From Phoronis australis (taxonomy: Eukaryota > Animalia > Phoronida), in assembly GCA_002633005.1 (NCBI GenBank), contig NMRA01000139.1:62001-126000 (forward strand): 64,000 bases of DNA, given 5' to 3'. Within the stretch, counting starts at the first letter, position 1. Each line of letters begins with the position of its first letter. Shown piece after piece: positions 11,906 through 61,066 of this stretch. The notes under the pieces were generated by a model. It saw nothing but the letters and a program-made list of their open reading frames with translations, did not search any database and was not told where the DNA came from. The translations under genes were made by a program, and so were the position numbers.

Positions 11906-25568
<13,663 letters not shown>

Positions 25569-30399: not shown

Positions 30400-31318
30400 A
30401 TGCTTTCACTTATCGTGATGTCGTTGGACGATGTCTTCGCATGGACTCAAATTGTGCTTCAACGATCGCTCTTAGGCACCATCAGGTTATTCGTCGCCAG
30501 CCTCCCATCTGCAATCAGTGCTTTCTTGCCGTGTCGGGGATTAAATGGACCGGGGGAATCCATCTGTAGGGGCCCAAGCCACAAATCAATGAAGGCATCA
30601 GTTTGAGATGGCTCCCAGTGGTTCGGTTCCCATTTAAAGTTATACCAGCTGGTGCATCTGCTGGACATGGTCGTATTCCTTCTCAGTCCGCTTTGGGGCG
30701 GAGATGCTCGATATAGACAGAACAATGATGATGCAGTGGAATGGTTTTTTCTGTGATGTCTGTAGTAACCACCTGGTCGCGAATCCAAAGCAGGTCGGCG
30801 ATCCTGGCATCGTAATACAAATCGACGAGTCTTTGATGGCGCACAGAAAGAATAACACCGGCCACCCTGTACCCGTGCGGTGAGTGTTTGGGGGCTGTTG
30901 CCCAGTCCAGGGTTTCGAATTTTTGGAATTTGTTCCCGATCGATCTGCACAGACACTGCTTCCAATCATACAGCCTTGCATAAAACCAGGGTCTATTGTG
31001 CTCTCAGACACATGAGCGGCCTACAGTGGCATAGTGAACCTTCCAGTGAATCTTCCATATCAGCATCAGACCATTAATCACAATCAGAACTACGTTGATC
31101 CGATCACAGGTACCCACACCAATCACGTGGAGTGCTTTTGGAAGAACGCGAAATGCGGGTTCAAGGCGATGTGTGGGGCAAATGACGACAAACCAGAAGA
31201 ATATCTGGACGAATTTATGTGGAGGCAGCGCTATGGAAGAACAGCCAATGGCGCCTTCAACAACGTCTGTTGCACATATTTCAGTGACCACAGTACCAGA
31301 CGCCTTGAGCGGCACTGA
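30400..31318 (+). pseudogene. Merlin / ISXO2-like (IS1595 family) DDE transposase pseudogene in IPO11 intron 1
   Basis: The plus strand reads GIVIQIDESLMAHRKNNTG...VFGG...EFVPDRSAQTLLPIIQPCIKPGSIVLSD...YQHQTINHNQNYVDPITGTHTNHVECFWKNAK...YLDEFMWR. These are hallmark IS1595/Merlin motifs, with in-frame TGA codons at conserved Trp positions. Confidence 0.9.
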
Positions 31319-37627: not shown

Positions 37628-40600
37628 ATGGATTTGTCATCTGCTGGAGCCATTGTACTGGAGACCCTGGGGCGTGCCTGCAGTCAGGATGCCAATATAT
37701 TGAAGCCAGCCGAGGCACAGCTAAAAGAGTGGGACGCCCAGCCTGGCTTTTACACCATTCTCCTGGTAAACGAGGCCAATATATCGACGCACCATTAAAG
37801 CACATAGTTCTAATGTCATACACCTTTCTGCAGAGACGTATTTGTGTTTATCTTATAATGCTACTCGTCTCCTTTGATGATATACGAAAATACCTCGGAG
37901 AACTGTTTTGTCAAAGGTGTTAGATAAACTATCATAGGCATGTATGACTGAACACAAAGCTCTGTTTTTATAAGAATTAAACATTTCAACCAATAACATA
38001 AGATTCACTGCAGTCCAAACTGCAGTCCATGTTGAAGGCGGTCTTCATAAATTAATTTTGCCATCTGTTAGTTATTCCTTCAGACCAGGCTTGTCAGGTC
38101 AGCTTGACTCAGCTGGTCATTTTACGCACCGAGCGTGGTCTCGAGGAATGACTGTCGGCCTGTCCTGAACCCATGGATTGGGTCTTCTGTGAGAAACAGG
38201 CACGTGGAGATCAGTTTCATTATTGTAAGTGGTCTGAAATAAAATGAAAAGTTTTTGTGTTTTTTTTTTTGACTGAATACGACTGTATAGCACGTCTAAG
38301 CTTTTCCTTCTGTTTACCTGACACTGCTTGTGTTTCCAGTCGGTTTTCTCTGACCACAGCATCGAAGTGAACGTTCGTTGGCTGGCAGTGTTGTATTTCA
38401 AGAATGGAATTGAGAGATACTGGCGTAAAACGGCTCCGAGGTAAATGGATCTTTCTGGTTTTTTTCTAGTTATAGATCATTCCAAGGGCTGTTGAAAATG
38501 TGTCATTTTTTTTTCACTAGGTCTTACTGTTTTCGAATTATTCAAGACTGTCCGAGGACTGGTCTCCTATTAACTGAGTTTTTGCACCGTATCTTTGGCA
38601 TCCCTTGACGGACCTCCCTGAAATTTGGTACGTGGATAGAGCTTTTCAAGCGCTATCCATTTCGTGCTATGGCTTAACATTCTCGCGATATTCGAGATTT
38701 ACTGCTCAGATGACTGTTCATTTGTTGACTAGTTAATTATAGCTGGACTTTGTTAGCCTATCATATTTGTGCTAGAGATTGCATTTTCCGTCTGGTGGAT
38801 ATGAAATTTACTTACAATATATATTTAGTCAATAGCCTGTGGACTTTGTTCTGGACGAAATCGGACACAAGATGGCGTTGTGGTAGCTATTTTTCAAATT
38901 ATGTTTGCGGAGCTTCAGCTCCGTGATCCTTTAACCGAACTGTTTCAAATTTGGTATGTAAATAGATCTCCTTACGGGCTTTCTAATTCGTTGTTGCTGT
39001 AATAAGCATTGGGTGATGCTTGTTGATGTTCTTGGTTTCATCGTAAATTTTTATTCGATTTCACCAAGTGTCGCTCCTCAGAGCGCTTCCATTTTCGTTG
39101 TTTGTGCAAATGCAAATATCACGAGTGTGTCTTAAAGACGTCTCAGCACTTTTGATGACAACCTGTGTTTGTGGGACTAAGATGGCAGTGTTTACATGTT
39201 CCTGCAACCTGATTGGTAGGAATTACTATCTCGATTGACATGTCGGAACTGTCCATTCCTGTTTATGGTGGAAGCAATTGCTGTCATGACAGGCAAATTG
39301 TTGAAATCATCTTGTTATAGTTGATCAGCCTATTTCACATTTTTCATTTTTAGGTCGTAATTAGGTTTTAGAAATATTTCAATTGTTAGCTGGCTGTCGC
39401 TCAAAAACATAAGCCTTACTTTTCATGATTTCATTAATTTGATATTTAATTGATTAGTAATTGTGCTGGTTGACTGTTCTGTAGAGCAATTTCTGAAGAA
39501 GAGAAGACAGCGATTAAACAAAAGCTGATTTCGAGTTTCAATGAACCTGTTAATCAGGTAAGCTCCTATGCCTTCTGAACACCTTTTCACAATTACTCAC
39601 TGTAACAGATTTCCAAAGTAACTCACAGTTGTGTTTAGTAGATGTTTATTTTTACGACTTAAACAACGCAGGTTACTCATCATATGGAATGTAGGTTTGC
39701 ACTTGCTCTCATTATTTTCCGTGACAATTTGTAAAACATGCAATGGCAATAAAACATACAATGGTTTTGACTTCTTCTGGAGATCTTTACACTTGGTACT
39801 AGACCAAGTCGATACTTGTAGAAACAATGCACACCTGTCCAGCCAATAGAATTGATCGCAGTGAGCAATAGTTCTTTGGTTCTTCAGTGTGACAACTCTC
39901 TAATGCCCTATATTCATGGCTGAGTAATCATTGGGTAATCTCACTTAAGCTTACCATTCCAGGTGGCTGTCCAGATTGCGGTGCTGATCAGTAAGATCGC
40001 ACGTGTTGACTGTCCTAAGCATTGGGAGGAACTTGTGCCAACGCTCCTAGAGGGACTCAAGTGTCCCGACGAACTCGTCCAACAGAGGGTGTTGCTCACG
40101 TTCCATCACGTGACCAGGACACTGGCGTCAAAGCGACTACCACTTGACAGGAAATATTTTTGTGAGGTAAATGTTTTCTGTTCGCAGATGGAAAATAGTT
40201 ATGTAAGCTAATGAAGCTGTTTTATGCTGTTTTATGTTAGTCTCAGTACTTCATTGCTGAGCTTGCAGAATATGGCTGCATGATCCGTTCTGTATCCAAA
40301 TAATTAAGCCGACGGCCATGTCAGTATTGACTATGCACTCTGCTTTGGGTTGGCTGAAACTGGATTTGATAGGGGATTATTTAGTAATGCACCAGTGTAA
40401 CCATGACAAGACAACAAAGTATGTTTGTGGCAGAATGCCTCTAGTAAATCAGATTTGCAATAAACACCCAAGGTCTAAGACTAGTTTGTCCACTCTGGTA
40501 CTGGGCTATGGAACTATCTTGAGTCAGATGTCTGTCAGAGTTAATCTATTGGTATCGATAAACACAGGTGCCTGGGTTATCTTAATTTTAGTTTTTCTTG

Positions 40601-43600
40601 TACCATTCTGTTACAAAAGTCCAATATTTTCTTCGTTATCAGGACCTCTTTGAGAGAATACTATTGTTTTGTGAATTAATTATATTGTGACAATGTCTAG
40701 TAATACTGTAATCCATATTCGAAATGAGGAATTCAATGATTCAAACATTATGTTCCAAAGCCATTTCAGAAAAATTAGAATTAATTACGGTGGTCGTGTT
40801 TGCAAAATGCATGATCGCGTTAATATGTTCATGAGGACAATCACTCTTCGGACAAACATTGATCCCATGCATCTATTTTGCAAACTGGTTACCGATTTTG
40901 TTCTTGATTATATTTTTTGCAATGACTGATCTTGGCACTTGGCCAATACACCGTTATGAATGATCACAATTATGTTGTTGACATCATGCTACTTAAAGTA
41001 CTGTACGCATGTATGTACACTGGAAATTAGGTCAACATATTAGACAACTGCAGGGCTTGGAATTTTCCGCGGAAACGCGGATTTCCGCTTTTTTCAAACG
41101 TTCTGTCCGCGTATTTTATTATATTTCCGCGTTTCCGCGTAAAAAATCGGATTTGACATAAAATTTCCGCGGCAAACTTTCTTTCTTACCGCCGCGTTGC
41201 CGACGACTTTCACCTCGAAAAGCGGAAGTTGCTCTTTATGTTTCGGAGGCACGTACATTGTCAACATTGCCGGGGCACCTGGGATAGGAGGCACAGAACA
41301 GTTCTCACAGGGGTTTGCCTGTCAGAACACACGTCAATGCACTCTTCACCCTTTCTTCACTTAGTCAAAAACTACATGCAAATAAGGAAATGTTTGGAGT
41401 CATTTCACATCACAAGCCCTACAGATGAGCACAGAAACTTTATTCTCTCTTGTATTTTTGACCCATTCACTCCCAGTGGAAACCAAGCTGAACTAAGAAA
41501 AATGAGGGCAAAAAAATGCAAAATCGGCACTTTTCACCCCAAAATCACCACTTTCCTGCCGATGCTCGACTAAAGCCAACATTAGATTCCGAAAGCAAAT
41601 TTCCTGCCGATTCCAAAAATGTGGTCCAAAAGTACTGTCAACCAACTAGTTTTTTGCAAATCTGGCTTGTTTGAGGGCTACCTGAAATCGCGGCCAATTT
41701 CTCAGTTGCTACACAGCAATGCACAACTGCAACAGGGCGCCACCATCTTGAAGAAGAGTGCAGCTACAGCCAAGAAACTGGCCTTTTTTCATTCCCAGCA
41801 TGTTCACAAATACAACAAAAAAAACATTCACTTGGCCTACACACAATACCTAACTAAAAAATGCCCCCAAGCCTGGCCTAGCCCTAGATTTTAACATTTT
41901 GGGAGTGCAAATTGACCGTGGCCACAACCTAACTATTCAGTGCCACCATAGCGTGGTGGATTTCCTCAATTGCGGCTCGTGTGATTGTAAACTGCGGCGA
42001 CAAATACTATAACTCTGCAGCCAAAAATGTTTGGAGGCGTGAGTGGCGGACGAGCTAAGACAGACGCACGCTTTCGGAGGTGGTACCGTTTATTTTTTAT
42101 TTTTTTTTATAGTCCTCTCTCGATTTTTGTCGGCAAAAGGTTCACACCGGCTTTTTCAAGGCTACCTGCGTGCATGTTTCGGGCCGTAAAAATTTCTGCG
42201 TTTTTCGCCATTTGTCATTCAAAGCCCTGCAACTGTGATAGCATCAAAGCATTGCGGTATGAGACAACAGCTGTTATGGCTCGTCATGGCCCGTAATTGT
42301 GAGCCAGAATTAAGTGGAAAAGATTTTGCAGGCAGAATTGACCTTCATGACACGGAAGCACTATTTTGTCTGTTTTCTTTTAGCGTATACTTTATGTATC
42401 GTAGTATCATATTGTGTCAAATATTGGAGATATTGTTTCATTGCCCGAAGAGGATGAAAAAATATTGTTTGAAGGCATTGAACAGGGTTTAGGAGGGATG
42501 ATACAATTCCTTCTCCTTGTCTTTAGTATTTCCTGAAGTGTTCCTGCTTTCTGTTCCAGTTGACGTCTAACACATTTGCGTTCATTCTCTCACTGTGGAC
42601 CGGTCACTCGGACAGTGTATTCCAAGCTGTCCGCACTGGGGATGTAAAGAGGATTCAACTTGCCATGGAATACAGTCTACTGTCTCTTAAAGGTGATTGA
42701 GATGGTACACCACTCAAGTCAGGGTAGACAACCTTCCATTCTCGTGGCTTGCTCAGGCGTAATCGCTAACAGCATTCTTTTCTGAAAAATATGATTTTTC
42801 AAGAGCTAGATTTGTTGTTTTTGTGCACATGAACATATTTTCTCATGAGCCCCAACTATTTTCACTAAACTGACAGGAAGCAAGACTTGTTGCTTGGTAC
42901 AAGGTATAGGTATGTCTCATGTCTATTGAGAACAAATATGTGATTCGTTTGAAAAGAAATGTGTTTGCAAGAACAGAATTGCGGTACGTGAGAAAAGAAG
43001 AAAAGCTCATGAGAAAGAATGCTGTTGAAGATGCTTGCATGGTGCGTGAGGGCGTATCAGCTTGAGTTAGTTAAGTTTGCTGTTCAAGGAGGTTGCTACA
43101 TGTTCAGTCTCATGAACTATTCAATGTATTATGTACAGCAAGTGTCTTGAAATTGATAAGCAACACACCATTATGATGTGACTGAAGTAAGCTAGCAAAT
43201 ATTTGAAAAAAGATTTTTGTTGAAACGTTTACCCTGAATTTGGTTTTTGGGAGTCCCTTTACTACTGTTCTCGGCCGTGGAGTAAATTTGAGGTTAATAA
43301 TTTATGAAAATTCCACAGAAAGGAAACATTGAGGCTAAATTTTAAATAGGGTTCAATTTAAATTTAATTTCATGAAAGTTTGGCTGTTTTCTATTTCTAT
43401 TTCCTTCTTATCTTTATTCTTAATTTTAGTTCTTGGCATTTGCCGTTACAGATAGTGCACTGACATTCTGATGGCTGTTATTCATGTTCTATTTTTTTTT
43501 GTAAGTTTTACTCGGTGTAATTGTATTTAATAAATTATTATTTTTTGATCAGAATTGACTGTCCTCTCATTGAAATTACATAATTATGAAACTTTTGGTT

Positions 43601-46600
43601 AATTTCCTCTTGATTTGCAGTTTCCTTCACAATTTGACCATAACTTGAACAAAGCTAAAAAAAATTTCGGCAACAGATTTGATAACTTGTTGTTGAAACT
43701 AGTGTTATTGCATATTGTTCAGTAATTATGGAAAAAGGTAGCATCCCTCTGGCTTAAATGAAGTATGTCTAGTTATGTAGTCAAAACTGTTGTGTTGTTT
43801 GTGGTTTGATCTAAATAAGCATTTGGGAAATGATTTAATTTAACAATTTTGTATCAGTTTATTTAGCAGTTTCATCTTGGCCTTCATCTTATGTATGGCT
43901 TGTTGATTTCTGTCACTTTAGTCCTGAGAAAGATGATTGTGTTTGGTTTCCAAGACCTACATACGTCTACAGAGGCCGCATCATTTCTCAACACGATTTT
44001 CCAAAGAATTACAGAATTTTTAGAAATAAGTAAGTATGCTCTGATATCAAAATCTGTAGATTGGAAGTGAATATTTTCAGTAATTGTTAAGTTAGAAACA
44101 CTATTGTGATAAGGGGTCTGTTTTATGAAAAGTGACTTAACACTTAAGTCAGAAATTTGGTTTTGTGTTATTTCAGAAAAATAATTAAATCTCAGATTTG
44201 TGGGCTCTGTACTCTAATTTCTGGAGGCTCACTTGACCTACTGGCTCAGCAAGTTGCCTTGACCTGACTGGTCAGTTTACGCAATAACCATGGTCATCTT
44301 GTGCAATGACCAACTGGCAGTTCCTTCATAGCTCAAACATCACTTCACGACACCACTGAATTCAATGTGTTTAGTTCGCATTTAACAACTTGGACCTCAG
44401 TTAGAGACCCTGGTTTTCCGTTTCACTTTAAACATTTTGGAGCTCAGTTAGAGACCCTGGTTTTCTGTTTTCGAAAATGGGAAATCCGTTTTAGCAAACA
44501 TAAAATTTTTGTTTTTCGGTTTAAATTTGTAAATTAGCAAATTCGGCTTTTCTGTTTTAAAGTGATAAATAACATGAAAATGGTTTCAATTGGTAATTGT
44601 CTTAACGTTTCCCATAAATTAAGCTGCCGCTCCATTTAGCGATAACCTGCTGCATGCCGTGTTTATTATTTATTAAAACCGAGAAAATAGCTGCCACCTT
44701 CCGAAAGAATGAGCAATAACTTGAGTTAGAGTATTCAGTGTTGGGAAAAAACAACCAAAAATGTGAGAATTATGGTATCTGCTGAAATATGTAAAATTCC
44801 TTTCGAAATTTCTAATTCCATGAAACAAATCAGATTATGTCAATGAATTCCATCTGTTTCTCATTATCAAGGAAAATCAGGGTCTCTCATGGTTTCTAAA
44901 TTGTATTTCTCTGTGTTAGAAAATGTAAAACCAAGGTTTCTACCGTTACATAGTTGGCTGAAGGAAGACTAGAGACAGCGTGTCACATGGCATGGCTTCA
45001 TTAGACTTTTATCAACTGTTTCATGGTAATGTTTCAGAGTCCAGTCTTCAACAGGATTACAGAGCTCTGGAAATGAGAGAGAAGATTCTGATATTACTCA
45101 TCAAAGTGGTATGTATTGCTGGCACACGAATTTTGCATTTCATTTCGATCAAAATTTTCAGAATTAGTGTTGTGTGAGCCCATGCCGGGTTGCTTGAAAC
45201 AGTCCCAAATGGGAACTCCACTAAGTTCCCTAAATCTTTTGTGTATTTGTTTCGTTCTAGACTAACAAATTTAGCATTTTTCTGTCATTTTAATGTGAAT
45301 CATTTTCTAATAATATATTACTAAAAACTGAACCCCTAATTCACTTAAAGTAATTAGGGACTTAGTCCTTAAATTAGGGGTGTTGCATGAAAAGTTCCTT
45401 GCTTATTTTCAATATTATTGAGAATTTAACGTAGACTGCAATCTGGATTTGTATCAAAGCTAAACATTGACTTAGTAATGAGACTCGGTGAGCATAAGAA
45501 AGGACAATCAGTGTTTTCACAAGTTCTCAAATACGCAGTAAATTTAGAGAACTTAGTTGAGTCCCTATTAGGGACTGCTTCATGCAGCCGGCCACTGGTA
45601 TCCAAATATCTTTATTGCTGCTATACTTCTGGTAAAATCTTCATTTGGGTTTTGAATGAGTTCTAAGAGTTCAATAATATGATAAAGTGCCAATTGTGTG
45701 TGGCAAAAATCTCATTTGACTCTAAAATTGAGAAACGTTATTTTGATGCCGTGGCGTTTTGCACATTTGATAAGTTTTCGCAGGATACTACATTCAGGTT
45801 TATATTCTGCAGCTAATAGAAACTCAAGAGATGCATCCCGATTCCTACGTACCGTTCCTCAGTACTTCCCTAGATATCTGCGTGAGGTACAACTTCACCG
45901 AGGATGGCAAAGGTGGGTTATGATATGTTGGTGTGCATGGAAATGAACTTTATGTTTTGTTGTTAATAAGGTTATAATGGTGCCTTGAGGAGCATGGAAC
46001 TGACTGAGTTCAGGGCACTGTGTAAGCGTCAGCAGGAATTGTATGTTTACAAGACATTGCTAATGTAAAGTGGCTATAAACAGATGTTCTCTCCAAGAAG
46101 TAAACATCTAAATTCGATCTTTTAATACTATAAAACTGGTCTGAACTTGTGCCTTCCCCAGATGAGACTTTATTTCTGGGTTTGTAAAAAACTGACTGTT
46201 CGTTATTCGTTGAGAACATGCTTGGTCAGTAAAACGACATGCCGTGACTATGCCAACTTGTAGAGCCTGGTCTCAAGCAAAAATGAATTGCAAGTAATTT
46301 CGAACCCCTGAAATTGCCTCCAGTTTGACCAAGGAAAAATTTGATACCAATTTCGTAATGTTAAGTGGCTTAAACGAGAAGTTGATTTTTGTTATGGAAG
46401 CCTGGTTTGTTGCCACTCTAAGGGTTGCAGTGTTTAACCTCTGTGGTGTACTGTGGCTTAACGAAATTAACAGAGTTTTTAGTAAGTCTCTTCCAATGTA
46501 ACGTGATTTATTTCTAGTTAATGTGGAAACCATTTTGAATAATTAAGATGTAGTTCTGCCTTCCTCTTACTTTCTGACTCGTAGAATTCCATTTTAAGCA

Positions 46601-49600
46601 CCTTCTCTATTTTTCTAATTTTCCATAACAACGCAACACATTACAATGATCAGTAAATCTCTCTACTTATGTGCAAGCATTCAGAAAGTAATTCTGTCTC
46701 TGTGGCTCCTTCTTTAGTGCACATATTCACAATGGCTGCACTTGACTGGCTAAGACATCTGATTGGTTCCGGCTTTCAAACCAATCGGATGTCTTAGACG
46801 GTTGAGCTGGTCAAGTCATTCAAGTGCAACCATAGAATACAAGTTCTGTTCCCTTGATTGTATGGTTGATTTGGTATAAAGCATTGAAAACTGTAATTGG
46901 TCAACTTTATTTCAAAGTGAAAAGTTATAGTTAAATTTGTATCATGGGAAATCTGTCTTCATTTCAGGCAAAGTTTTTGAACGGTTCACAGTGGGATGCT
47001 TCAACCTGATCAAGAACATCTTGAGAAGTGAAAACTACAGGCCAGCCAAAGTGTTAGAAGGTAGTGTCTTGGTGTGGCGTCAGGGGATCAGATTTTGAAA
47101 GTTGTTGAAATGAATAGCCAAAGTGACTAAACCAATATATCGTGATGTTGTTAAAGACATGGGCAATGGTAGTTTGTATTCCATACTTCATGAACCTGTT
47201 TGGTAATTGACCTATCGCCAGGATTTTGAGTGACGGCTTAACTGACCATTTAGAACACAGCATTATTGACTCACCTTCGTTTCCAAGCCGCCTTTTTACC
47301 TGACACAACACGTTGCCGGGTAAAACTTATTGTTTGTTAGTCGACATTATGCAAGGGAGTGAGCTTACGATAGGTCAATTATTCTGCACACACTGCTGGT
47401 AAATTGAAGTGCAAGATTCGCTGACCTCGTTACCTATGGTTCGTTTCACGTCCAGCACCAGAAACTCTTAATAAGGTATTATTGGGCTGTGCTCTGCTTA
47501 TCTGCTCTGGGCAACTGGTTTCCGCTACGATGAATAAAATAAAGTGCTCACAGCAACTTTTCCAACATAATCGTGCTCAAAAATGTTCAAAATCAAAAGT
47601 TTTTTAAGTCTCAGGTGTGGTCTCACATTATTTTTTCCCATGAATTCAGAAAACATGTCCGAAATGATCTCCAATTTCAAAATTTAAAGTTGTTCCATTT
47701 TAATTAAGACAGCTAGGTTATACAATAGGTTTTATGATGGTCAGTCAGCAGGATACACAAACTCAGTTACAGAGTTAGTGTATTCACGTATTGCGTGAAT
47801 CTTGACCATTCTCTTTGTAAAGTGCAGTGCTTTTTAGTTTGCGCTCACCCTGCTTTCTAGCCTTATGTGTCTTTATTCTCTCCCCAGAAACAACCAGTCC
47901 TGTCACCCTAGAGGCAAGCAAAATCAAGATGGCGTTCTTCACACACAGCAATATGTCAGAAATTTGCCAGCGACTGGTGAAGAGTTATCTGCCTCTCACA
48001 CCCGAAGACCTGGAATGCTGGGATAGTGATCCAGAAGACTTTGGTTTGTATAGCCATTTTGTAGGCTGATGATAATAGTGTCAGAAATAGTAGTGTTATT
48101 TGTCTGTTATTCTCTGATTAATCTTATAGGATGTAAGTTGTGTTATTCGAAATTAGTGAGGCTAATACACAACTGTTAGAGTTAAAATTTTGTAAATTTC
48201 CAATTTTGCTCGTAGAGCCTGAAATGTGTTCCTCGGTATAAAGTTATTATTTGCAATGCTTAAAGCATTAGAATTGTGAAAATCTTCGCAATGAACTAAT
48301 AGGAATTTCCATGGCCTAATGAGGCAGTGTGTGTACTAGATGGATGTTCATGGAATTTTGCAGACGTGTTTATATAATGGATGGGACAGCATGAGCAAAT
48401 TTTCAGATGTTTTCAACTGCTGCTGTGCTCCCTAAGTTTTTTGCATTAACCTTGATGGATTTTCATGAAATTTGGCACGAAGGAGCTGACGACACCTTCC
48501 CATAATCATCACCTTCAATTTTCAGTTGCTGATGAAGGTGGAGATTCCTGGAAGTTTAGTCTAAGGGTAAGGCAACATTTTCAAACTCTATTTGTGTACC
48601 AAATAACCAGTATCTATTGCAGGCTACACTGATTATCTTTTTTAATGAATATTCAGTAACCCGATACAAGGTGTGCTTTATATTTTCTAATGAATATTCA
48701 GTGTCAGATACAGGCTGTGCTTCACATTTTTCTAATAAGTGTTAAGTATCGGATAGGGGCTGTGCTTCATATTTTGTAGTGAATATTTGGTATCTGATAG
48801 AGTCTGTGCTTCATATTTTCTAATGAATATTCATTATCAGTTACAGACTGCTTCATATTATCTCGTGAATATTCAGTACCAGATACAGACTTGCTTCAGA
48901 TTTTCTAACGGATGTTCAATGTCGTATAGAGACTGCTGCATTTGCCAACACAACAAAGTGAACAGGATCAAGTTTGCATGTGACCATTGAATACATTGTC
49001 ATTCAGATCAGTGATGACCGTCATCTCATGACTTTCCTTACTCATCCGAGAGAGTTGTTAACAAAGTGACCTTTCTCTGAGAGACATTTTCGCGGATCTG
49101 AGATCTGAAACGGCTTAGAAACCCTGATTCTTTTGAAAATGGAATGTGTTTTAACTGAGTCTGAACATAATCAAAGGTCCATTATCTGATATAGATGGAG
49201 TTTAGAAGGAGCGTCTCAAATTAAAAGTGGTGTTCTTTACTGAGTTCCAGCACATATATTTTTGATAAACTATTCGGTGCTTTCCAGCCTGCCACAGAGG
49301 TGCTATTCCTGACACTGTTCAAAGAGTTCCGCCTGTCCCTAGTCCCGGTATTGCTCAACATGGTGAGAGAAGCAGAGAAATTGGTGGACACACAGACAGA
49401 TCTGACCACTTTGTTGTACAAGGATGCAGGTATGACATGCGCATGACTACTTTATGAATTTTGTTATTTTTTCTCTTTATTGTCTTTCTGCGTCGCAGAC
49501 CACAGTGCTCGGTTGTATGAAACAGTCCCAAATAGGGATTCAACTGGGTTCCGGTAATCTACTGCATATTTGTGGGCCTTTGAAAATACCGATTGTCCTG

Positions 49601-52600
49601 TCTTATGCTGTTTGAGTCTCATTACTAAGTCAATTTTTGGCTTAAATTGATAAAAATGAAGACTGAAATCTCAATATTATTGAAATAAAAGGGATCTATT
49701 CATGCAACTTTCCTAACATAAGGACTTCGTCCCTAATTGTTTTGACTGAATTAAGAGCTCAGTTTTTAGTTATATTAGAAAATGCCATTAGTCAAAGAAG
49801 AGCTCACACTGAAGATAAAACGGTAGAAAAAATATTTATTTACATCTGTGCCTAAAGAATGAAACAAATACAAAAAAGATTTACAGTGAATTTGGTTGAG
49901 TCCCTATTTGTGACCGTTTCGTGCAACTGGGCACAGGCCTTCATTTCATGAAACTATTTTAGTCTTAACGTAGACTGAGACAACAATGCTGTCATTCCAT
50001 CGCATGCCACGTTGTGCTTATTGAAAAATGCTGTTAACGTCGTGTCAACAATCATACTTGAGACTTGAACTTTCATGAAACGGAACCCTGGTGATACTTT
50101 AGTCTGGTTTATGACATGCCTGTCTAGTCATGTGATTAGAAATTTTAACAAGTAAACGCTTTTCATAATATCTAAAGAAGTCTTGTGGACAGTTCTGTTA
50201 CAGTGCTCCCCACAGCAGGAAATTCAAACTTGACAGTTTAAAACCGTTGATTTGGAACGGTGTGTGGTTAAACCATTGTTCTAGTTTAATGTGGTTTCCC
50301 ACATTATTCTTTTCCAGTCTACAATGCCGTTGGACTTTCCTCTTTTGACCTCTACGATGACATCGATTTCGACCAATGGTTCACCAATACGCTTCTCTCA
50401 GAACTACAGAATTCAAACTCGGAGTACGTAGACGACGGGTGCTTTTTTCTGAGCATGCATTTTTGTTGTGTGTACCAGATTTGAGTTGAGATATTAGTCT
50501 TGAGTCACTGTCAGCTGTTCTGTCTGCCGGGTTCTGTATCCGACCATGTCACCTCATTTTTATATATAACTTCAGCACTTTTTCAGGATCCAGTGTTTGT
50601 TTTGTGTATTAAAATGCACCTTGGTAAAATCATTATAAGATTACTGAAAGCAAAGATACCTGCAGACGAGGGCTTTTTTGCGACAGTTGTACAGATATTT
50701 GAGTTCGCTGGAACCTTTTAACTTGACACTGGTTGTGAGGTTTCAATCAAGAAAAATGTCAAGATAACTAACTTCTTCAAAAATGTAGTTTCCTTGAGGG
50801 TAGCTTAATTGACAATCTCTTTTCGTTGTGTTTAGTTATAGGTTGATCCGCCGCCGTGTCATCTGGTTGATTGGTCAGTGGGTAGGTGTAAAGCTGTCCA
50901 TCGGATTGAGGCCGGCTCTGTATGAGGCACTGCTCCCCCTGTTGGGGCATGGTGAGGACCTTGTGGTGAGGATTGAGGCTGCCAACACTCTCAAAACTGA
51001 TATCCTTTACATGGTCTTTGCTATGCTCATTCAGTTACCTAATGCATTTTTATTACAGTGGAATCTTGAGCAACACGGCTTGTAAACAATGTGCTTTATC
51101 ATCTGTTGTGTAAAATGACGTATGTTTTGTTAAACACGACGTTCCATTTGTTTTTAATGACCTTAGGTACAAGTTTGTATGTATGCATTTTTGTTTCTAC
51201 CCTGGGTAATTGCTGTATTCTACCATGTAAGTGCCCATGGGCGATAAGTTTTTCACAGTACAGAAAGTTGGGACAGGCGTTAAATAAGGCGTGGGTGTTT
51301 ATACATGTTCATGCAGACGTCCTCTAATCCAGTGTCCGCCCACGTGAGCTGTCTAGGTTTTTATACCACTTGCCTTCCTGTCATGGTTTTCAACTTATGT
51401 TGAAAATGCAAAATTTCAGAAACATTTAACACTATTTAGATGGGAATTACTGATAAAATTTGCAGGATTTTGTGCATTTTTAAAGAATATTTATTTCAAG
51501 ATTCAGGGGTGGGTGTGAAAATGAGCACACCTGTGCACTGAACAAACTTCACTCAAAAGTTCAGGGTGTGCATTTACTTGGCGGAATAAAGTAATCCTTC
51601 AAAGGCATTCTACATGCACCAAATATATTAGTTTCCAAAACACTTTGGATATTTTTGTCAAATTTTGTGTTGCTTGAAGTTTCCGTGCATGAGATATGTT
51701 CCTTAACTGTAGTTCACCTGTGGACGACTTTGAATTCAACACAGAACAGTTTGAGCCTTACCTGGAGACCAGTTTTAAGTTGTTGTTCCAGCTGCTTACA
51801 GAAGTGTCATCATGTGAGTCCAAGGTTGGTACAAACTGCGGGTGGAAAAACCCGTTCACTTTTCCCATCATGCAGCAGTTGAGTTGTTGATCTAGTGATG
51901 TCATATCCTGTAACGAGATGTCTGTAGGACTCTTGTGCCTCCAGATGTACTCGGTACTTCCAGTTAATTGGCCTTTTTATGGATAGTGCGTGACATCATA
52001 TACACAAAGGATTGTGAGATATCCCTCTTCCAAATCTGTCCCATCAGTAGAAATAGATACATGATCTGCTGACATCTTTTCATGAAACAGTTACAGTTCA
52101 GTTTATTGTAGATACAAGAAAACAAGTGGTATCTACCCAATATCAACTGCCAGGCTGAGCTTACAGAGCAGGAAAGTCACACTTCCTTGACTCTAGATTG
52201 CTTTCTTGCATCCTGCTTTTGATTGTGCGCACGCCGTTTTCTCTTGTCGTAAAAAGGTCGATCGCCTCATTCAGAGTGATTGGTGACCCATTCCAAGCTG
52301 TTTTGCTAGATTGAACTTCATTGTGTCACTGTTTTATGCATTTCATGCGTGACGTGGTCGGAGATTGTAAGAGATTTTACTGCATTTCTTCATATTCTAA
52401 GCAGTCGCCGTTTGATCAAGGCAAGTTGGGGTGTTCTTGTGGCTCATTCAAAACATCCAGTGTCGCGAAAGGTGCTTGTATGAGAGAAATTGTGTTCACG
52501 ACAGACACATAGTTGTTTCATCATCGTTTCTTGATTTTGAATTTTACTGGAGTATCATCTTCCATTTGCCACATGTTTTTGTTTTACCCAATAGATGCTT

Positions 52601-55600
52601 GTGCTCAATGTCATGTCATTTGTGATTGAGCGTTCCGGTGCCAACATCCGTCCTCACGCTTCTAACCTACTACAGTACCTCCCCCTATTGTGGCAGGAGT
52701 CGGAGGAACACAACATGCTTAGGTGTGCTATACTCACCACGCTCACACATCTGGTGCAGGTAGGTCAAAGGTCATCATAATCAGCTAGGTCATTATCGTG
52801 TTTTTCAGACCCCTATGTCATTTTTTTGAAGATCGTAAATACAGACGAATTGTAACGGTCAGAAATTTTTTTTTGTTTTTAAGATTGTGTAGCATTCAGT
52901 TGCAGTTTAAATCATGTATCTGTGGTCTGGTGAAAACTTCTTTCCTACCAGCAACCTTAACATTTCCATTGACTAATCAAATCTGAGATGAGTAGATTTA
53001 TTTATATACAGATTGTTCATCCACATAAAATTTTTTACTGATCAAGAATCTCAGTGTGTGTTTGAAGCAAGGCGCTCTATTCATCTGTAGGTTATTTAAA
53101 ATGACTGATGGTGCTCAATTTAGTTTAAAACAAAAATAGGAAGTTAAGTTACCTAAAAGTTGTTATATCTTGATTGTTTTGCTCACAGAAAGGTTTGGAA
53201 AAGGTCATTAGTATCGATAAGTGAATTACCTGATATTAAAATACTGTTCTGTGCAGTGGGGAAAATTGCCTTCTTGCGTCTTCCAAGTCACTGAAATAAA
53301 ATTCACGAGTGTGAACATAATTGTTCTTCGCTTATTTTGTACATTGCCAGCATTGTCATTCCATTCTACTAAGTTTTCAAAGGCTATTTACCTTGGTGCG
53401 AATGATGGAAACTTTGCAAAGTGTTGTTTTAATATGACAGCTACACGGGTTAAACCAAGTTATGAGGACAATATATTTTCTTAATTGTCATCTTTGTGTG
53501 GAAATTTGGATGAAGTAAGATTTCACAATTCCGCCATTTTTGGCCTTGAATAGGTGAAGAGTTGTTGTGTATAAAAGTGTGCAAAACTGAGTAGATTGTG
53601 CACATCAGATTTGGTTATGTGTTTCTGACAAGCATAATTTCATTTGATACCTGCCCTGCCATTTTGACTATCATGGTTTTAATGCTGCTTTCTGTGAACT
53701 TTAACCCAGGGTCTGGGTGAGATCAGCCTGACCATGTACGAGTTCTTGCTGCCGGTCATCCAACTGTCGACAGACATAAACCAACAAGCACATGTCTATC
53801 TACTGGAAGATGGCTTGGAATTATGGGACGTCACTCTTTGTAACACACCACGGCTGACGCCAGAGTTGCTGCGACTGTTCATTAACCTACCCCCTCTGTT
53901 GGGTGAGTCCATTTCTTGTCTATCAGTTGTGTAGTCACCCTGGGGCTGTCTTACTCTCTAATTAGTGTAGTCTAGAGTCTGGCAGTATTCACATGTCAGT
54001 TTTCATCAGCTGTCACTTCTAATTTGTTGCCATTTTGAATAGCTAAATCAAATATTGCTGTAAATTTAAATTGATATGTTCCAAACAAATTAAGATTTAT
54101 GGAAAAAATCTCGGTCTGAAAACTGAATATACACCTTTCATTTTTGGATGATCTTCATATGTGATGGCAGTTGTCTGACATTAAGCTGATTTATGTTTTA
54201 GAATATGGCACGGAGAATCTTCAGGTGTGTCTGAAGGTAATAGAGTCTTACGTTGTACTGGGGCAGAAACAGTTCATGGAGGTAAGCTGAAGTTCACAGA
54301 TGTGTCTGACACAATGTATTGGAAAGTGTTGTGATAATCTGTGTAATGACTCACTACCTGCGCACGTTCTTATCTCGTGTTAGTACTTGGGAGATTCTGG
54401 AAAGGAATAAAGCTGAACATTCGGTGATAGCTGTTCAGTCATTTCCAGGGCTGTCCAGTTTGCTAGACATGTATGCTGCAAAAGCTAACCATTCTGTCGA
54501 AAACCAACTTTGGACTTAAGCCACTTGCTGATTTAAAATCATCTTCGTCCTCGCTCAGCTCAGATACAATTTCTAGGCCCCTTTTTTATTGTTTCAAGTT
54601 AGGCCCATTAAGTTCCTTGCCACAGCAGTTTAGTTTCGATTGCCAAGATAGTATGGCCGACCAGGGAATTCCAGGTAACCTATGGTAACCAATTTCAATT
54701 CAGACAACGGAACATGATGTTGAATACATCTCGGAAGATTGGTGATATTTTTAATACCAGGTCATGGCTTATTACGGCTTGTAGGTCTCGAGCTTGAGTG
54801 ATTGGTCAATAGATGTCACCTTATTGTACATGCCCCTGTTCACCTTGGTACTTGTGAAGCTACACTTGTAGTGTCTTTCCTTTCGCAATGTTGCAGGAGT
54901 ATTCGTCAATTCTCGTACCGTCGTTGTGCAGCGTTTTAACTGATCTGAAGACAGAGGGAGTCATCATGGTTCTAAAGGTGAGAGTTTGTAATTTTTTCGA
55001 GAAGTTTGAAGTGTGTCTGTCATTATCATTTTTGGTTTAATACATAGTTCTGTATACTCAGATCAATGCAGCTCTTTGCTATTCAATATTTATTGGACAA
55101 ACTCCAAATGTGGACTTAGCAGAGTCACGCTGTATCATGTGGCGCCCATCACGCCTGTCTGTTACCAGTGAACAAGCTTGGAGTTGGTTCTCAAAGCTGC
55201 ACACAAAAGGTGTCTGATTTCTTTCAAATAATAGTCTTGTGCATCAGAGTGATAGCCCTTTACTGACTCTAGTCTTGGTAAGTGTCAACAACGTGTCTGT
55301 AGAAGTCGCGTACACGATTGTGATGTCAATCGTTTGTACGCAATGGCAATCACGACTTCTGTTTCCAAATTTGAAGGCACGCTTTCACCGTTCTGAAAGT
55401 AAACTGGATGACATTACTTTGGTGGACGATATCGGAATGGAGATCTTTTAAAGTTAATTTTTTGCTAAGTTGAGGCTGGCATTGATGTGAGTGTGGGTAT
55501 TTACTGGAATTTTTGAAGAATATGAGTTTGACCTAAAATCCGTTTTTGCCATTTTTCACGACTATACAGTAAACATCTCAAAACGTTGCTGGACGTAATG

Positions 55601-58600
55601 CTGGAAGTAATGCTGAAAGCGCGACATTTGTTTAGGCATCTCTGGGTAAAGTTAAAAATATCCTAAGTATTAATACATGTTTCTACAGAAATCAGCACTA
55701 AAAATTTAATGTGCTTTTATTCACAAAACACATAATTACAGATTTCAGGTAAAGCAGAAACTGCACGTGTTCTCGTTCTCCAAGGTTACATGTACAGGCT
55801 GCTGTGACCTGAAATGAACTCAGTCTTTTGATGTTCACCATTTCTCTCCATCCTCCTATCTCAGTGGCAGTGGTGTTTGTATTCTCTTTGTTGCATTCAC
55901 AGGTCTTCCTTGTCTTTCCTTCCAGGTTGTTGACCTGATCTTCAAAGTGTTTCCTGTCGAGGGTCCTCAGGTGTTTAGGCCTCTTTTACCAACCATATAT
56001 ATGGCATGCCTTACTGGGGAGGTAAGTAAAGGACATGTAACACTCTCATTGCCAACCATATTTCAAGCATGCTTTACTTGTGAGATAAATGATTAACTGA
56101 TAAGTCTCCTTTTGCCAACCATACATCCTGTGTTTATGAGACACGATCTGGAAATAATCTGACATCTTTTAGTCTTGATGAAATGTAGGTTACTGGGCTA
56201 AATTTTTATGTTTGTTGCTGTGAGGCTAGGGTTATGACCTAAGTGTTCTATAACTTTCCAAGAATGCTGTTTCAGTAGTCCTGGTGGAGGACATCACAAA
56301 CAATCTTGTTATTCCAGGAGCAGACCTATGTGCAGTCTGTCTACATGTGTCTCCTGTCCAGAATCATTGTTCAGAACAACCGGCTGTTCTGGGTTTTTCT
56401 TGATGAGTACGCCAGAAGCAACCAGAGAGATGTGAGTTGCATGCTTTTGGTATGAGAGCTGAACAAATGACGAGACGTACCATCAAATGATGACATAGGT
56501 TTCTTCTGTGAATCGTATGGTTTTGTTATTTTGTCATAATTTCGTTGTAATGCCAATGTTTGACTAAACACCCACCATGTATTTTCTTGGAAACGCGCAT
56601 GTTTCGATACCAGTAATTCACTTTTTGCACAGAAGTAGTTAACATTCTTTCACATTTTTATAAGGCTGATTACTTTACTACAGATAATGGAAAATTTACT
56701 GAAAGTAGTGTGATGACACCCACATAGTACAAGTCACGCTAGCAATTGGCTAAGATTTATGTAAAAATTGACCAAATAGATTTTCACTTGTCAGCCACAA
56801 GGTGTGCTAAATAAGTGAAGAATTGCCGCATAAGTGGCAATGGTGGGCTATAACGTGTCGGTATTTTGAGTACCAGTTTGATGCCCATTATTGAGTGGAG
56901 AAAACTGGTTCTCAAAATTCAGGCGTGTAATATCCGACCATTACCATATAAGTTGTTCCTCAATCTACACAATTGGACTTGTGCAGTGACCATGCCTTTA
57001 TTAACGCCAATCCATGGAGGATTTCAGTGTCTAAGATGTATGCGTTTTGAGTGCCTTTTTCTTTGTTCTTTTTTATTAAGAAAAACAACCACGATTTTAG
57101 ATCGACTTGACATGTTTCGGTGTCATTTATTCAAACACCATCATCAGGAGAGAGAATATAGTGGCCACCTAGCTAGGCCCATCAACAACTAATGCAGCAC
57201 AGATACAGTCTGTTCTGTTTTCCAACGATGTATTATTTGGAACTTGCAGATGAAGTGTCTGAGTGATACGTAAACGCTACTACCTGAGTGTTAACCCAGT
57301 CAGTCATGTGGGTAAATGATTCATTATTGTGGTTGCAAAAACATATTTTTCTTACAGAGCAATCAGTTGCTAGACGACATGTTGCATGTGACCTTTGATA
57401 AGCTAGACTGCATAGCACAGCAAGAATGGCGGAAAATGGTTGCCATGGCAATGGCTACATTCATCCCAAATAGCAACGGGTGAGTGATAATTTTCGCTGT
57501 GTGTCGTGGTGGAGGAGTGGCAGTGTGCCCAGAGCCGTGAATTAATGAACGCTCGCGCGTTGATGACTGAAAATTTTATTGTACTGTGGGCCAATAGCCT
57601 TGAAGTTAACAATAAAGTCTAGCAATAGTTGTGACTGGCAGTAGGTCTGGTTGCAGTATCTGACGGAACATTTTCAGGATTTAGAAGTGAGGAAGTTGTA
57701 TGATCCTATAGCACTGGAATTACATTATTAAACAATTTTTATTAAAAAGTCATTTAAAGTGTACACCCAGATTGGATGCAGTTTTCTAAAAAAATCATTG
57801 GTTGTGTATGCATATACATTATATAATTATGTAATTATATGTACGTGTACATGTATTATATAATTTATGTATATTTGTATAGATGTCATGACAATTGGTT
57901 CAAGCAAAAATTCTGACCCTTCTTAAACTCAACAGAGCTTGCTTGTGAATGTAAAGGTGCGGCACCTACTTAAATGTATTGAATATTCATGGAAAGAGGA
58001 AGACTGGTGATTTTGCTGATTGAATTTTATTTTTCATCATGCTGTATGTTCTAGATACTTAATTTGTGGATATCATCAACACTGGCTGAATTAAAAAAGA
58101 AAGTGCAATTGTTCTGATAACTTGCAATTCATTAGAAATGTGCAGGTCACACAGTTGGGCCCCTAACACGAAACACCAGAACTCGCAAGAGCTCTCATAT
58201 CCGTCAACAGGTTATTTGTGACAACATTCAAGTTTGCCTGTACCTTTAAAAAAAATAATAATAATTGCAGGCGGTCTGATACACGTTGTGCCAGACGTGC
58301 GCAGGCCTCTCATGTGGGCCCATTGCACTGATCACCTGGAAATATTTTTATGCTTTATTAATATATCGTTAAAACTGAGCTGAGGAGCTAGAAACCTGGC
58401 TCAAGGGTTTAGCAGTGTGACCTGGTGGGACTCGAACTCACGACCTCAAGTAAAGAAAGCGGGGAACTTATCAACCAGGCCACACTGTACCTTTTAAGAT
58501 GATGGACACTTTTCCACATGTTGCCATGCACTATATGTTGTAGACATGCTATGGTGCCATGCAGTAGCTTGCTTCATAGCCTATGAAAAGCTGGGCAAGA

Positions 58601-61066
58601 CTGAGGTATTTCAATATTCAGTATCATTCTCGGGACATACTGGGTAACCCCTATGCCCCATGGTGTGTCCGTGTCGGGCTACGTCACAGGGACCTGTTAG
58701 AAATTTGATGGCTGAATGAAACTACTTTTGAATTTCTGCAGTAATGCTTTGTTCACTCTCCCAGAGAAACAACAAGAGTCTCTGTAAGCCCAGTACCCAG
58801 TTGTTTTTGCTTTTGTCTCTGTTATGCCTCGTTTTTGTCTATTTCAGCGTGGTGGTGCAGAACTTTGGTGAGATAATCAACGTCTGTGTCCAAGTACTCC
58901 ATGATGTTATGAACAAGGACCATGCATCGGAGCAGTATACAGAGTAAGGCTGCCATTTGTAGCTGATGCCTAGTTGACATTTATGTATGTAAGCTTGTGC
59001 CGTTTATTCCTCAGATTCGGGCAGATATAGTGAGCAGCTCCCTACGTTACTATTTATTTTTGTTACTGTCGTCGTAGATTTTTTTCTTTGAGTTGGTTCG
59101 TGAGTTGCGTGATTACAAGCGAAAGACTCACAACTGTGAAAGCGTACCTGTGTCTTTGTTTATTGTTGCTGGTGTTAGTAATTTTATGTTGCCTTCTGAA
59201 ATACATGACGATATCTCACGATGTTCTTGCGTTGTTGAGTGATTCTTGCCTCTGTGGAGCACACGCCAGTTCACGTCATTTATATTGCAGCTCATTGGTT
59301 TTTGTGGTGGATCAGGCCGATTGTGATGAAGAGGTTGACACAGAGCACGAGAAGAGGAAGAGACAGGTATTGTGGGATAGCATTGCAGTGGAGCTTAATG
59401 TCATACCCTCAACGTAAACTGTGATAATAAGTGGGATGTTCTGTTTAATGGTTTCAGACTTGGTGGCGATCGTAACCACTCTGACTAGCTGACGGTGCTA
59501 AGTAGAGAGTGAGGGTAAGATGGTTCAACAGGAAACAACTGGTCTTTACTACCAGCAGCTAGTCTAGTAGTGAGTTGAAGATGAATGAGGTTGGGTTTTA
59601 GATAGAAAAGCAAAGGTACATTTATTTATGAGAATCAATTTTTGCTGATTTTTACTTAGAGCATCAAGAAGTGTGACAATAAGTCATGACGTCGTTTGGG
59701 TATTTTTCATGAGTTTAATGAGACGCAATTCCTTTTTCGATAATTTGTGGCAATAACTGGGACATTCTGTTATCAGGTATGACACTAAAAAGGCTTCATC
59801 GAACTAATTATGGTGATCATGTCGCAACTGGTTGATGACAAAACCAGTTGAATAAAGTACTCAAAAATTGACTTGGGTGGCCCTAGTAATACCACTTGTC
59901 GGCATAAATGCTTGCCTCCAGGTTGTCATGTGGGACCTGCGTCTTCCAAAGCCACCCATGCTGGTAAACAGCTATTCATTTTCAGTTTGTTCAGTTAACA
60001 TAAAGAGATAGGCCTACTTCACGAGCACCACCTGGTGGATAACAGGTCTCCCACTAGAAATGTACTACTTAGTGGATAACAAGCTCCTCTCTAGAAATGT
60101 AATTGTTTTGTCAATAAACAGTCTCTATTGTTTAATTTGTGCCGGTGGTTGCCCGTTTCATGCTGGTCAGTAGGATTAGATTAGTCAAACAATGGCAGAT
60201 GTCATCATCTGAATGAAGTCACAGAGTACCCTGCAGTGTTAATTGGATGATGAACCAAGCCTTGAATGGAGGGACCAGTTTAATTGGTGGCAGGGATCAA
60301 AGGTCAAACTCCTTTGACAGCTCCATACTTTGTGTTAGTTGAAAGCAATTTTTACGTTTCTCATCAACCAGGTTCTTATTTGCGTTTTAAAGTTTTATCA
60401 CAGTCATTCTTGTATAAATGCGTAATAGTTTACATTTCTCATCAAACTTCTGTGCTTATCATGCACACATGCGGTTGGTACTCCTTAAATGGTGTTCTAA
60501 TTGTCTGCTCCCGTGTAAAAACCTAAAAGTGTTTTTTTATGGATATAATTAGCTCATACGTCCATGAAGTATCGCTGTATTTACCCAGTTTCAGTCATTG
60601 GTCATATAAAGACCGTCAATCACAAGCTCCGCCCCCTTACACAAGGTCAACAACAAACAATAAGTTTTATCCAGCAACGTTTTGTTTGTCGGGTAAAATG
60701 GCAGCTTGGAAACGAAGGTGTGTCAAGAATGCAATGTTCTGATTGGTAAGTTAAGCCGTCACTCAAAATCCTGGTGATAGGTCAATGATCAGGTTGAGAC
60801 CAATTTTATAGTGCTCAGTGCTCTAAATCATAATTGCATGGAACGCAGGTTTATAACTGCAGCTGTAAGCTAATGTTTTACTCTAAATCTTATCTCTTCT
60901 CCCCCAGCTCACTTACCAAGACCCTGTACACTCCACCTCGTTGAGAGACTTTGTCGTGGGCCAACTGGGGGAGCTGGGTCGGCAGTGTGGCATGGAGACT
61001 CTACATCAACGCATGCAGTCCGTCGACATGGATGTCTCGTCGCAGCTGCAGTGGTTTCTGAGGTGA
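37628..61066 (+). CDS. IPO11: importin-11, 972 aa, 25 coding exons
   Basis: Exons: 37628-37765, 38340-38440, 39485-39557, 39963-40166, 42560-42692, 43922-44029, 45038-45108, 45813-45912, 46968-47060, 47888-48043, 48526-48566, 49288-49429, 50318-50423, 50836-50999, 51718-51824, 52595-52759, 53710-53902, 54202-54281, 54897-54977, 55926-56021, 56318-56431, 57358-57479, 58848-58943, 59291-59366, 60908-61066; total 2919 nt in frame. The N-terminus MDLSSAGAIVLETLGRACSQDANILKPAEAQLKEWDAQPGFY and motifs RWLAVLYFKNGIERYWRK, WQESEEHNMLRCAIL and HVYLLEDGLELW match importin-11. Confidence 0.96.
41051..42229. mobile_element. non-autonomous hAT-like element, 1179 bp, with 6-bp TSD
   Basis: TIRs CAGGGCTTGGAAT / ATTCAAAGCCCTG; perfect flanking direct repeat CAACTG; same family as 13027-13526. 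Confidence 0.88.
45185..45593. mobile_element. MITE (~410 bp), with a second copy in opposite orientation at ~49508-49933
   Basis: Ends GCCGGGTTGCTTGAAACAGTCCCAAATGGGAACTC / GAGTCCCTATTAGGGACTGCTTCATGCAGCCGGC. The internal sequence matches the reverse complement of 49720-49933. Confidence 0.7.
48640..48910. repeat. ~43-bp tandem repeat, ~6 degenerate units
   Basis: Unit approximately TTTTCTAATGAATATTCAGTGTCAGATACAGGCTGTGCTTCATA. Confidence 0.8.
49002..49109 (+). ncRNA. intronic box C/D guide RNA (snoRNA/scaRNA), predicted to target U12 snRNA
   Basis: Perfect 8-bp terminal stem TTCAGATC (49002-49009) / GATCTGAA (49102-49109); C box GTGATGA (49011-49017); D' box CCGA (49046-49049); D box CTGA (49098-49101). 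The guide TTTCCTTACTCAT (49033-49045) is complementary to U12 AUGAGUAAGGAAA. It lies on the same strand as the IPO11 host intron (48567-49287). Confidence 0.8.
49508..49933. mobile_element. MITE, sister copy of 45185-45593
   Basis: CTCGGTTGTATGAAACAGTCCCAAATAGGGA ... GTCCCTATTTGTGACCGTTTCGTGCAACTGGG. Confidence 0.65.
51000..51717 (+). other. U12-type AT-AC intron of IPO11
   Basis: 5' splice site ATATCCTTTAC at 51000; perfect branch site TTCCTTAAC at 51699-51707; terminal AC at 51716-51717. Splicing gives in-frame TLKTAVDDFEF. Confidence 0.97.
57105..57152 (-). ncRNA. minimal type I hammerhead ribozyme (Penelope-associated type), partly degenerate
   Basis: Minus strand: CTGATGA-T-GGTGT(ttgaataaatg)ACACC-GAAAC-ATGTC. 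Core boxes are intact, stem II is 5 bp, stem III is the palindrome ACATGT, and the cleavage triplet is GTC. Stem I is weak. Confidence 0.65.
58150..58490 (-). mobile_element. tRNA-derived SINE
   Basis: Minus-strand head CAGTGTGGCCTGGTTGATAAG...GAGGTCGTGAGTTCGAGTCCCACCAGGTCAC with A/B boxes, followed by a non-tRNA body. The 3' boundary is approximate. Confidence 0.55.

Follow-up and report, generated by a model that had tools for sequence, protein, structure and literature searches.

A candidate stand-alone box C/D RNA in an importin-11 intron, predicted to guide 2'-O-methylation of U12 snRNA at G18

Known guides and the G18 site of U12 snRNA

The closest described system is SCARNA21, a C/D-H/ACA hybrid shown by northern blot in Kishore 2013 (PMC4053766). 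In Jorjani 2016 (PMC4914119), the D' guide of the long SCARNA21 is predicted for the U12 G next to a pseudouridine and is conserved in 17 eutherians. The position is written there as U12-17, and since the same text numbers psi19 as 18 and Gm22 as 21, it corresponds to G18. A Xenopus table (PMC6984369 supplement) lists SCARNA21 for U12-G18 and U19 in both human and frog. No experimental test of the predicted SCARNA21-G18 guidance was found in the literature examined. The sequence-only reading of the locus described here had known of no guide assigned to Gm18; as SCARNA21 is already predicted for this site (Jorjani 2016; the Xenopus table), a claim to the first Gm18 guide fails. Because the predicted vertebrate guide for Gm18 is fused with a guide for psi19, it is difficult to study either of these adjacent modifications apart from the other.

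Gm18 is a mapped modification of human U12 in a 2021 review (PMC7960923), in agreement with the sequence-only reading, which named it as a vertebrate methylation, and through this review the mapping goes back to Deryusheva 2012. In the review, the guide column of the table is blank for Gm18 and its function is called unknown. GUAAGGA occupies U12 nt 18-24, and the first 30 nt of U12 are almost identical in a set of 17 species that spans vertebrates, plants, fungi and worms (PMC3201867). SCARNA17, which the sequence-only reading named for Gm22, is indeed the box C/D guide for that site of U12. Searches by titles and abstract openings, with most subscription papers outside their reach, revealed no invertebrate or stand-alone U12 guide, and a search for IPO11, snoRNA and U12 together, incomplete for subscription papers, found none. 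U12 is mentioned in the main text of neither PMC3884663 nor PMC8522698.

Architecture of the RNA and its pairing with U12

The window (the whole 64,000-nt stretch of Phoronis australis DNA analysed here) contains a 108-nt box C/D guide RNA candidate, measured from stem to stem, in an intron of the importin-11 gene (table 1). A C box of the form RUGAUGA and a D box CUGA stand in kink-turn register and are closed by a terminal stem; the 8-bp stem, the C (GTGATGA), D (CTGA) and D' (CCGA) boxes and the kink-turn geometry proposed by the sequence-only reading are all in place. The D' and probable C' boxes (CCGA and CTGAGAG) are both degenerate, and stand in register across a 5-bp stem. The window contains a single C/D scaffold with a stem of at least 8 bp, while 60 shuffles gave 0.05 on average. 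The guide 13-mer has an expected count of 0.004 per window, and the rough chance of a perfect 13-mer to any snRNA in a guide slot is 2e-4. The folding energy of the RNA is ordinary (z of -0.64 and -1.15), and unremarkable global folding is normal for C/D RNAs.

Table 1. Features of the candidate guide RNA and its host gene (window coordinates)
Feature	Position	Strand	Remarks
Importin-11 (IPO11) host gene, coding span	about 37628..61063	+	
41-nt importin-11 exon 5' of host intron	48526..48566	+	
Host intron, 721 nt, GT-AG	48567..49287	+	Junction reads: 17, from 3 runs; distance of D box to 3' splice site: 186 nt
Candidate box C/D guide RNA	49002..49109	+	Predicted mature form ~49006-49104 by a trimming rule from PMC4914119
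Terminal stem, 5' arm	49002..49009	+	8 bp
C box GTGATGA	49011..49017	+	3-nt kink-turn bulge, canonical register, registered stem = 8
5-bp hairpin 5' of guide	49020..49032	+	Final three letters GAC also in metagenome RNAs
D' antisense element, 13-mer	49033..49045	+	13/13 Watson-Crick vs human U12 nt 14-26; C49041 = D+5, opposite G18
D' box CCGA	49046..49049	+	CTGA or TTGA in metagenome RNAs
Internal stem-loop, D' to C'	49050..49075	+	5-bp stem 49050-54/49071-75
Probable C' box CTGAGAG, degenerate	49077..49083	+	Assigned by geometry: kink-turn register with D', 3-nt bulge
D-side element, 14 nt	49084..49097	+	Not shared with metagenome RNAs
D box CTGA	49098..49101	+	By sequence
Terminal stem, 3' arm	49102..49109	+	Exact reverse complement of 49002-49009
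U12-type AT-AC intron	51000..51717	+	ATATCCTT donor; TTCCTTAAC branch site 51699-51707; spliced AT..AC

An antisense element of a C/D guide comprises 10-21 nt that end at D or D', and its fifth nucleotide marks the target. The 13-nt element at D' has this form, and each of its positions, D+1 to D+13, is paired to human U12, which served as the reference; an antisense probe to human U12 contains the identical 13-mer (PMC8336889). Combining this 13-mer with the location of GUAAGGA in U12, the D+5 rule (PMC8522698) places C49041 opposite G18. The perfect pairing claimed for U12 nt 14-26, GUAAGGA included, thus holds for human U12, as does the D+5 assignment to G18 by human numbering. The second guide named by the sequence-only reading, at the D box, is the 14-nt element that the probable C' box fixes in register; it had been left without a recognisable target, and exact-string searches still gave none. 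Such strings miss a match that contains a wobble pair, a marked base or a line break; with them no human snoRNA was found to carry the element and no fitting site was found in the part of the human and Xenopus rRNA text compared.

The comparison with Rfam proposed earlier gave no match for the guide RNA, at gathering score or at E<=1, and SCARNA21 (RF00602) has no match in the window. Over 36000-62500, Rfam at E<=1 gave no snoRNA and no H/ACA partner for psi19; the three weak matches there are to two miRNA families and one bacterial sRNA. No second copy of the RNA was found in the window with a model built from four RNAs. Regarding Cajal body signals, positions 49054-59 fit by eye four of the five core letters of the fly C/D CAB motif cgaGUUAnUg (PMC4041459), a weak likeness that does not recur in the metagenome RNAs described below, and a GU-repeat stem is absent. 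A Cajal body signal is not evident in the sequence of this RNA.

The importin-11 intron and the same guide in metagenome RNAs

The introns were defined by three raw RNA runs that carry the window's species label (about 18-19% of each). Junction reads place the guide RNA on the sense strand of the spliced intron 48567-49287. They also confirm the AT-AC intron that the sequence-only reading placed three introns downstream in IPO11: intron 51000-51717, the third after the host intron, has five spliced reads in two of the three runs. At several sites in the exons the RNA reads and the window disagree, so the reads come from other individuals or populations. The contigs of RNA run X4 match only repeats in the window, or nothing. 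Identity of the importin-11 exons to the fish and shark proteins compared is 51-56%, whereas those are 81-89% identical to one another, which indicates that the DNA does not come from a jawed vertebrate. An annelid and a nemertean protein are among the best by summed score, with values too similar to single out a phylum.

Mature guide RNA reads are absent from the three raw runs (about 18-19% of each), which have almost no intron coverage. In one of the three, a single sense-strand read pair falls within the guide RNA and extends from ~49047 to ~49250; as it starts in the middle of the RNA and runs past its 3' end, it fits pre-mRNA or a precursor. The remaining non-repeat intron bins are empty, so that an RNA of 100 nt would scarcely be represented in such libraries, which are a poor test of its expression.

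The surrounding DNA has several features of its own. The part of the host intron directly 5' of the guide RNA is taken up by a 44-nt tandem repeat of about six copies with 73-77% matches (48638-48941), and the following intron contains a multi-copy element at 49500-49960, where many reads fit partly. Two more repeat-derived pieces come from a reverse transcriptase (2339-2770) and from an IS1595-like transposase (31016-31315). In the IPO11 intron after the AT-AC exon, a sequence like a U12-type branch site, TTCCTTGAC, is followed by AG (52184-52196); the donor of that intron is not U12-type, and the site may be a chance match or a cryptic 3' site. Near 23201 on the reverse strand there is a U12-type GT donor, GTATCCTT, in an apparent neighbouring cation-efflux (zinc transporter-like) gene, a call that rests on a weak PF01545 match at 16193-16600. 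This donor would possibly mark a second minor-intron gene beside IPO11.

A scan of metagenome contigs with a pattern of C box, guide and loose D' returned 52 loci, of which four (L014, L025, L042 and L052) are complete stand-alone C/D RNAs of 72-73 nt. They represent three distinct sequences, L025 and L042 being the same. The guide 13-mer is invariant in all four, an invariance partly built in, as the pattern fixed 12 of its 13 letters. Features that the pattern did not ask for are nevertheless present in them: a purine before the C box, T at D+1, a D' box CTGA or TTGA, a C' box RTGATA, a D box and a stem. The metagenome RNAs are 84-91% identical to one another over the RNA, compared with 52-71% in the 100-nt flanks. 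With the window RNA included, all 27 stem cells are paired and three of the seven pairs are changed on both sides, although the alignment holds four sequences, the structure was drawn from the same sequences and 20 of 500 shuffles reach this value. Beyond boxes and guide, the window RNA is 51-59% identical to the metagenome RNAs, with 47-60% in the flanks; identity outside boxes and guide is thus no better than in the flanks, which speaks against common descent of the window and metagenome RNAs. The D-side elements also differ between them. The letters GAC directly 5' of the 13-mer are common to the window RNA and all three distinct metagenome RNAs.

The metagenome RNAs share their strand with SNORD81/SNORD26-like and SNORD41-like RNAs (Rfam E 0.0007-0.007, below gathering), and no importin-11 exons were found near them, up to 3 kb per side. 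Their setting resembles a host gene with several snoRNAs, in DNA that seems to be eukaryotic and probably comes from an animal. Rfam found no SCARNA21 among the 26 of 52 metagenome loci tested, and the full guide pattern has no match in viral contigs. A search for U12 genes gave no match in viral contigs and three in prokaryote genomes, in bacterial records without an Rfam match; a search for eukaryotic 28S gave four matches in viral contigs, none of them rRNA by Rfam.

The other 48 loci behave as chance matches and were set aside. In two of them (L010, L031) a D box and stem accompany a TAGA D' and a C box that no purine precedes, which agrees with the chance rate of 0.013 per hit. Another, L024, lacks a D box, although GAC, 12 letters of the guide and a terminal inverted repeat are present, and its score of 19 bits is like that of random matches; its positions 1470-1590, with a C box, GAC with 12 guide letters and TCGA, could be a decayed relative or a chance match. 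Further elements were seen in the contigs of the complete RNAs. A 136-nt block that is 83% identical between L025 1425-1559 and L014 2649-2783 (reverse strand) shows by eye two hairpins, an H box and a 3' ACA; it has no Rfam match at E<=0.5 and is likely an unannotated H/ACA RNA of the same host. On the reverse strand of L052 (~709-879) lies a 151-nt C/D-like RNA with a 7-bp stem and a GU-rich interior, possibly a C/D scaRNA, for which Rfam gave no match. By eye, the D-side element of the metagenome RNAs fits 9 nt of 28S beside Cm4426, at an unmarked A.

Interpretation and comparison with known systems

The sequence at 49002-49109 has the appearance of a real, previously unannotated C/D guide predicted for U12 G18. 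The explanation we favour, with a probability of about 0.75, is that the major spliceosome removes the GT-AG intron, that trimming leaves an RNA of about 99 nt and that its D' guide directs methylation of U12 at G18. We infer the steps from splicing to methylation from general C/D biology. The spliced intron would be debranched, and exonucleases would trim it to an RNA of roughly 99 nt shielded by the C/D core proteins. The guide would then open stem-loop I of U12, and fibrillarin would 2'-O-methylate G18, most likely in the nucleoplasm or Cajal body. Points against this explanation are the degenerate D' (CCGA) and C' boxes and the distance of the D box from the 3' splice site (186 nt). Importin-11, a broadly expressed multi-intron gene, is likely to be simply the current host.

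A different target is an improbable but serious alternative: the guide together with GAC could pair with 28S rRNA, mainly or additionally, and act on G2829 (human row), just before psi2830. GAC, which all the RNAs have in common, extends the pairing to the human/frog 28S row in the stretch after Um2824, whereas the adjoining base mismatches human U12 nt 27. The duplex energies are -18.5 to -20.5 kcal/mol for 28S and -17.4 to -17.6 kcal/mol for U12, a comparison biased by the use of a U12 fragment of only 14 nt, and the metagenome copies sit among rRNA-guiding snoRNAs. Pairing with U12 is perfect, however, while the duplex with 28S in the D+5 register contains one mismatch (D+3) and three G-U pairs (D+1, D+4, D+11), and the letters D+1 to D+4 that match U12 are kept in all four RNAs (three of these letters were fixed by the scan pattern). 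In addition, the metagenome RNAs require a bulge for GAC to pair with 28S, and G2829 is unmarked in the human and Xenopus alignment (PMC6984369 supplement). Less probable again is the reading that a real U12-G18 guide has its working gene elsewhere in the genome and that the copy which moved into this intron is silent or decaying. The guide does move, as its host differs between lineages, and the CCGA in place of CUGA at D', the degenerate C', the D-side element unlike that of the other RNAs and the lack of mature reads would suit such a copy. Nevertheless, the C box, D box, kink-turn register, 8-bp stem and 13-nt guide are each intact; the RNA is in sense orientation within an intron that is spliced, and the window has no second copy.

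Two further readings are the least credible. According to the sequence-only reading, the placement in IPO11 could be functional, coupling a guide that modifies U12 to a gene that depends on the minor spliceosome in a feedback loop. IPO11 does carry a real, spliced AT-AC intron three introns downstream, and G18 falls within the branch-site pairing region of U12. The intron of the guide itself is GT-AG, so that its release requires no minor spliceosome, and an identical guide is found among other snoRNAs, where about 3 kb on either side is free of importin-11 exons, while vertebrate SCARNA21 resides in CHD3. With a GT-AG intron around the guide and a host that varies, the proposed link is unsupported; with the function of Gm18 also stated as unknown in PMC7960923, we regard it as very unlikely. 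A chance arrangement of intron motifs is less likely than any of the above. It would agree with the lack of an Rfam match, the ordinary folding energy and the missing mature reads, but it has to face a scaffold expected 0.05 times per window, a guide with a chance of about 2e-4 and the identical guide in conserved C/D RNAs elsewhere, and it is largely refuted.

On the favoured explanation, the activity itself has already been predicted, and what appears to be new is its stand-alone form, with no H/ACA insert, outside vertebrates and in at least two host settings. No new mechanism is involved. Gm18 is the first base of the U12 stretch that pairs with minor-intron branch sites, and a stand-alone guide of 72-100 nt would serve as a simple reagent for Gm18 alone. 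More tentatively, U12 Gm18 may be ancient in animals and served by a dedicated, mobile box C/D guide that stands alone, with SCARNA21 derived from the insertion of a psi19 H/ACA domain into the C/D shell, and GAC may make the RNA a dual U12/28S guide. If this were true, the modification would be older than vertebrates, and the locus would present a case for the origin of hybrid C/D-H/ACA scaRNAs.

Among known systems, the single-domain invertebrate box C/D guides of snRNAs, Drosophila mgU2-25, mgU2-28, mgU2-48 and others (PMC3884663), are similar in form to the window RNA. Those Drosophila scaRNAs target major snRNAs, unlike the window RNA, which matches the fly CAB box weakly. SCARNA17 (mgU12-22/U4-8) is, like the window RNA, a box C/D guide for U12, and its target Gm22 is four nucleotides from G18, but it is a 421-nt tandem C/D RNA described as independently transcribed. 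The strongest likeness is to SCARNA21/ACA68, which is also intron-encoded and has a C/D shell with a terminal stem and a 5' guide beside D' predicted for U12 G18. The order of C box, U12-G18 guide and D' given in Jorjani 2016 is the same in the window RNA. The likeness of the two shells is one of layout and predicted target, and one RNA is vertebrate and the other not. SCARNA21 carries a 138-nt H/ACA domain between D' and C', whereas the window RNA has only 48 nt from D' to D and therefore, having no such insert, has no psi19 guide. The sizes differ accordingly (about 259 nt for SCARNA21 and about 100 nt here), as do the hosts (a CHD3 intron in human and importin-11 here). By the tests run on its sequence, namely the absence of the H/ACA domain and of a match to RF00602, together with the different host, the window RNA is outside the SCARNA21 family. 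It would nonetheless fill the role that the C/D shell of vertebrate SCARNA21 is predicted to have, while lacking the H/ACA insert responsible for psi19.
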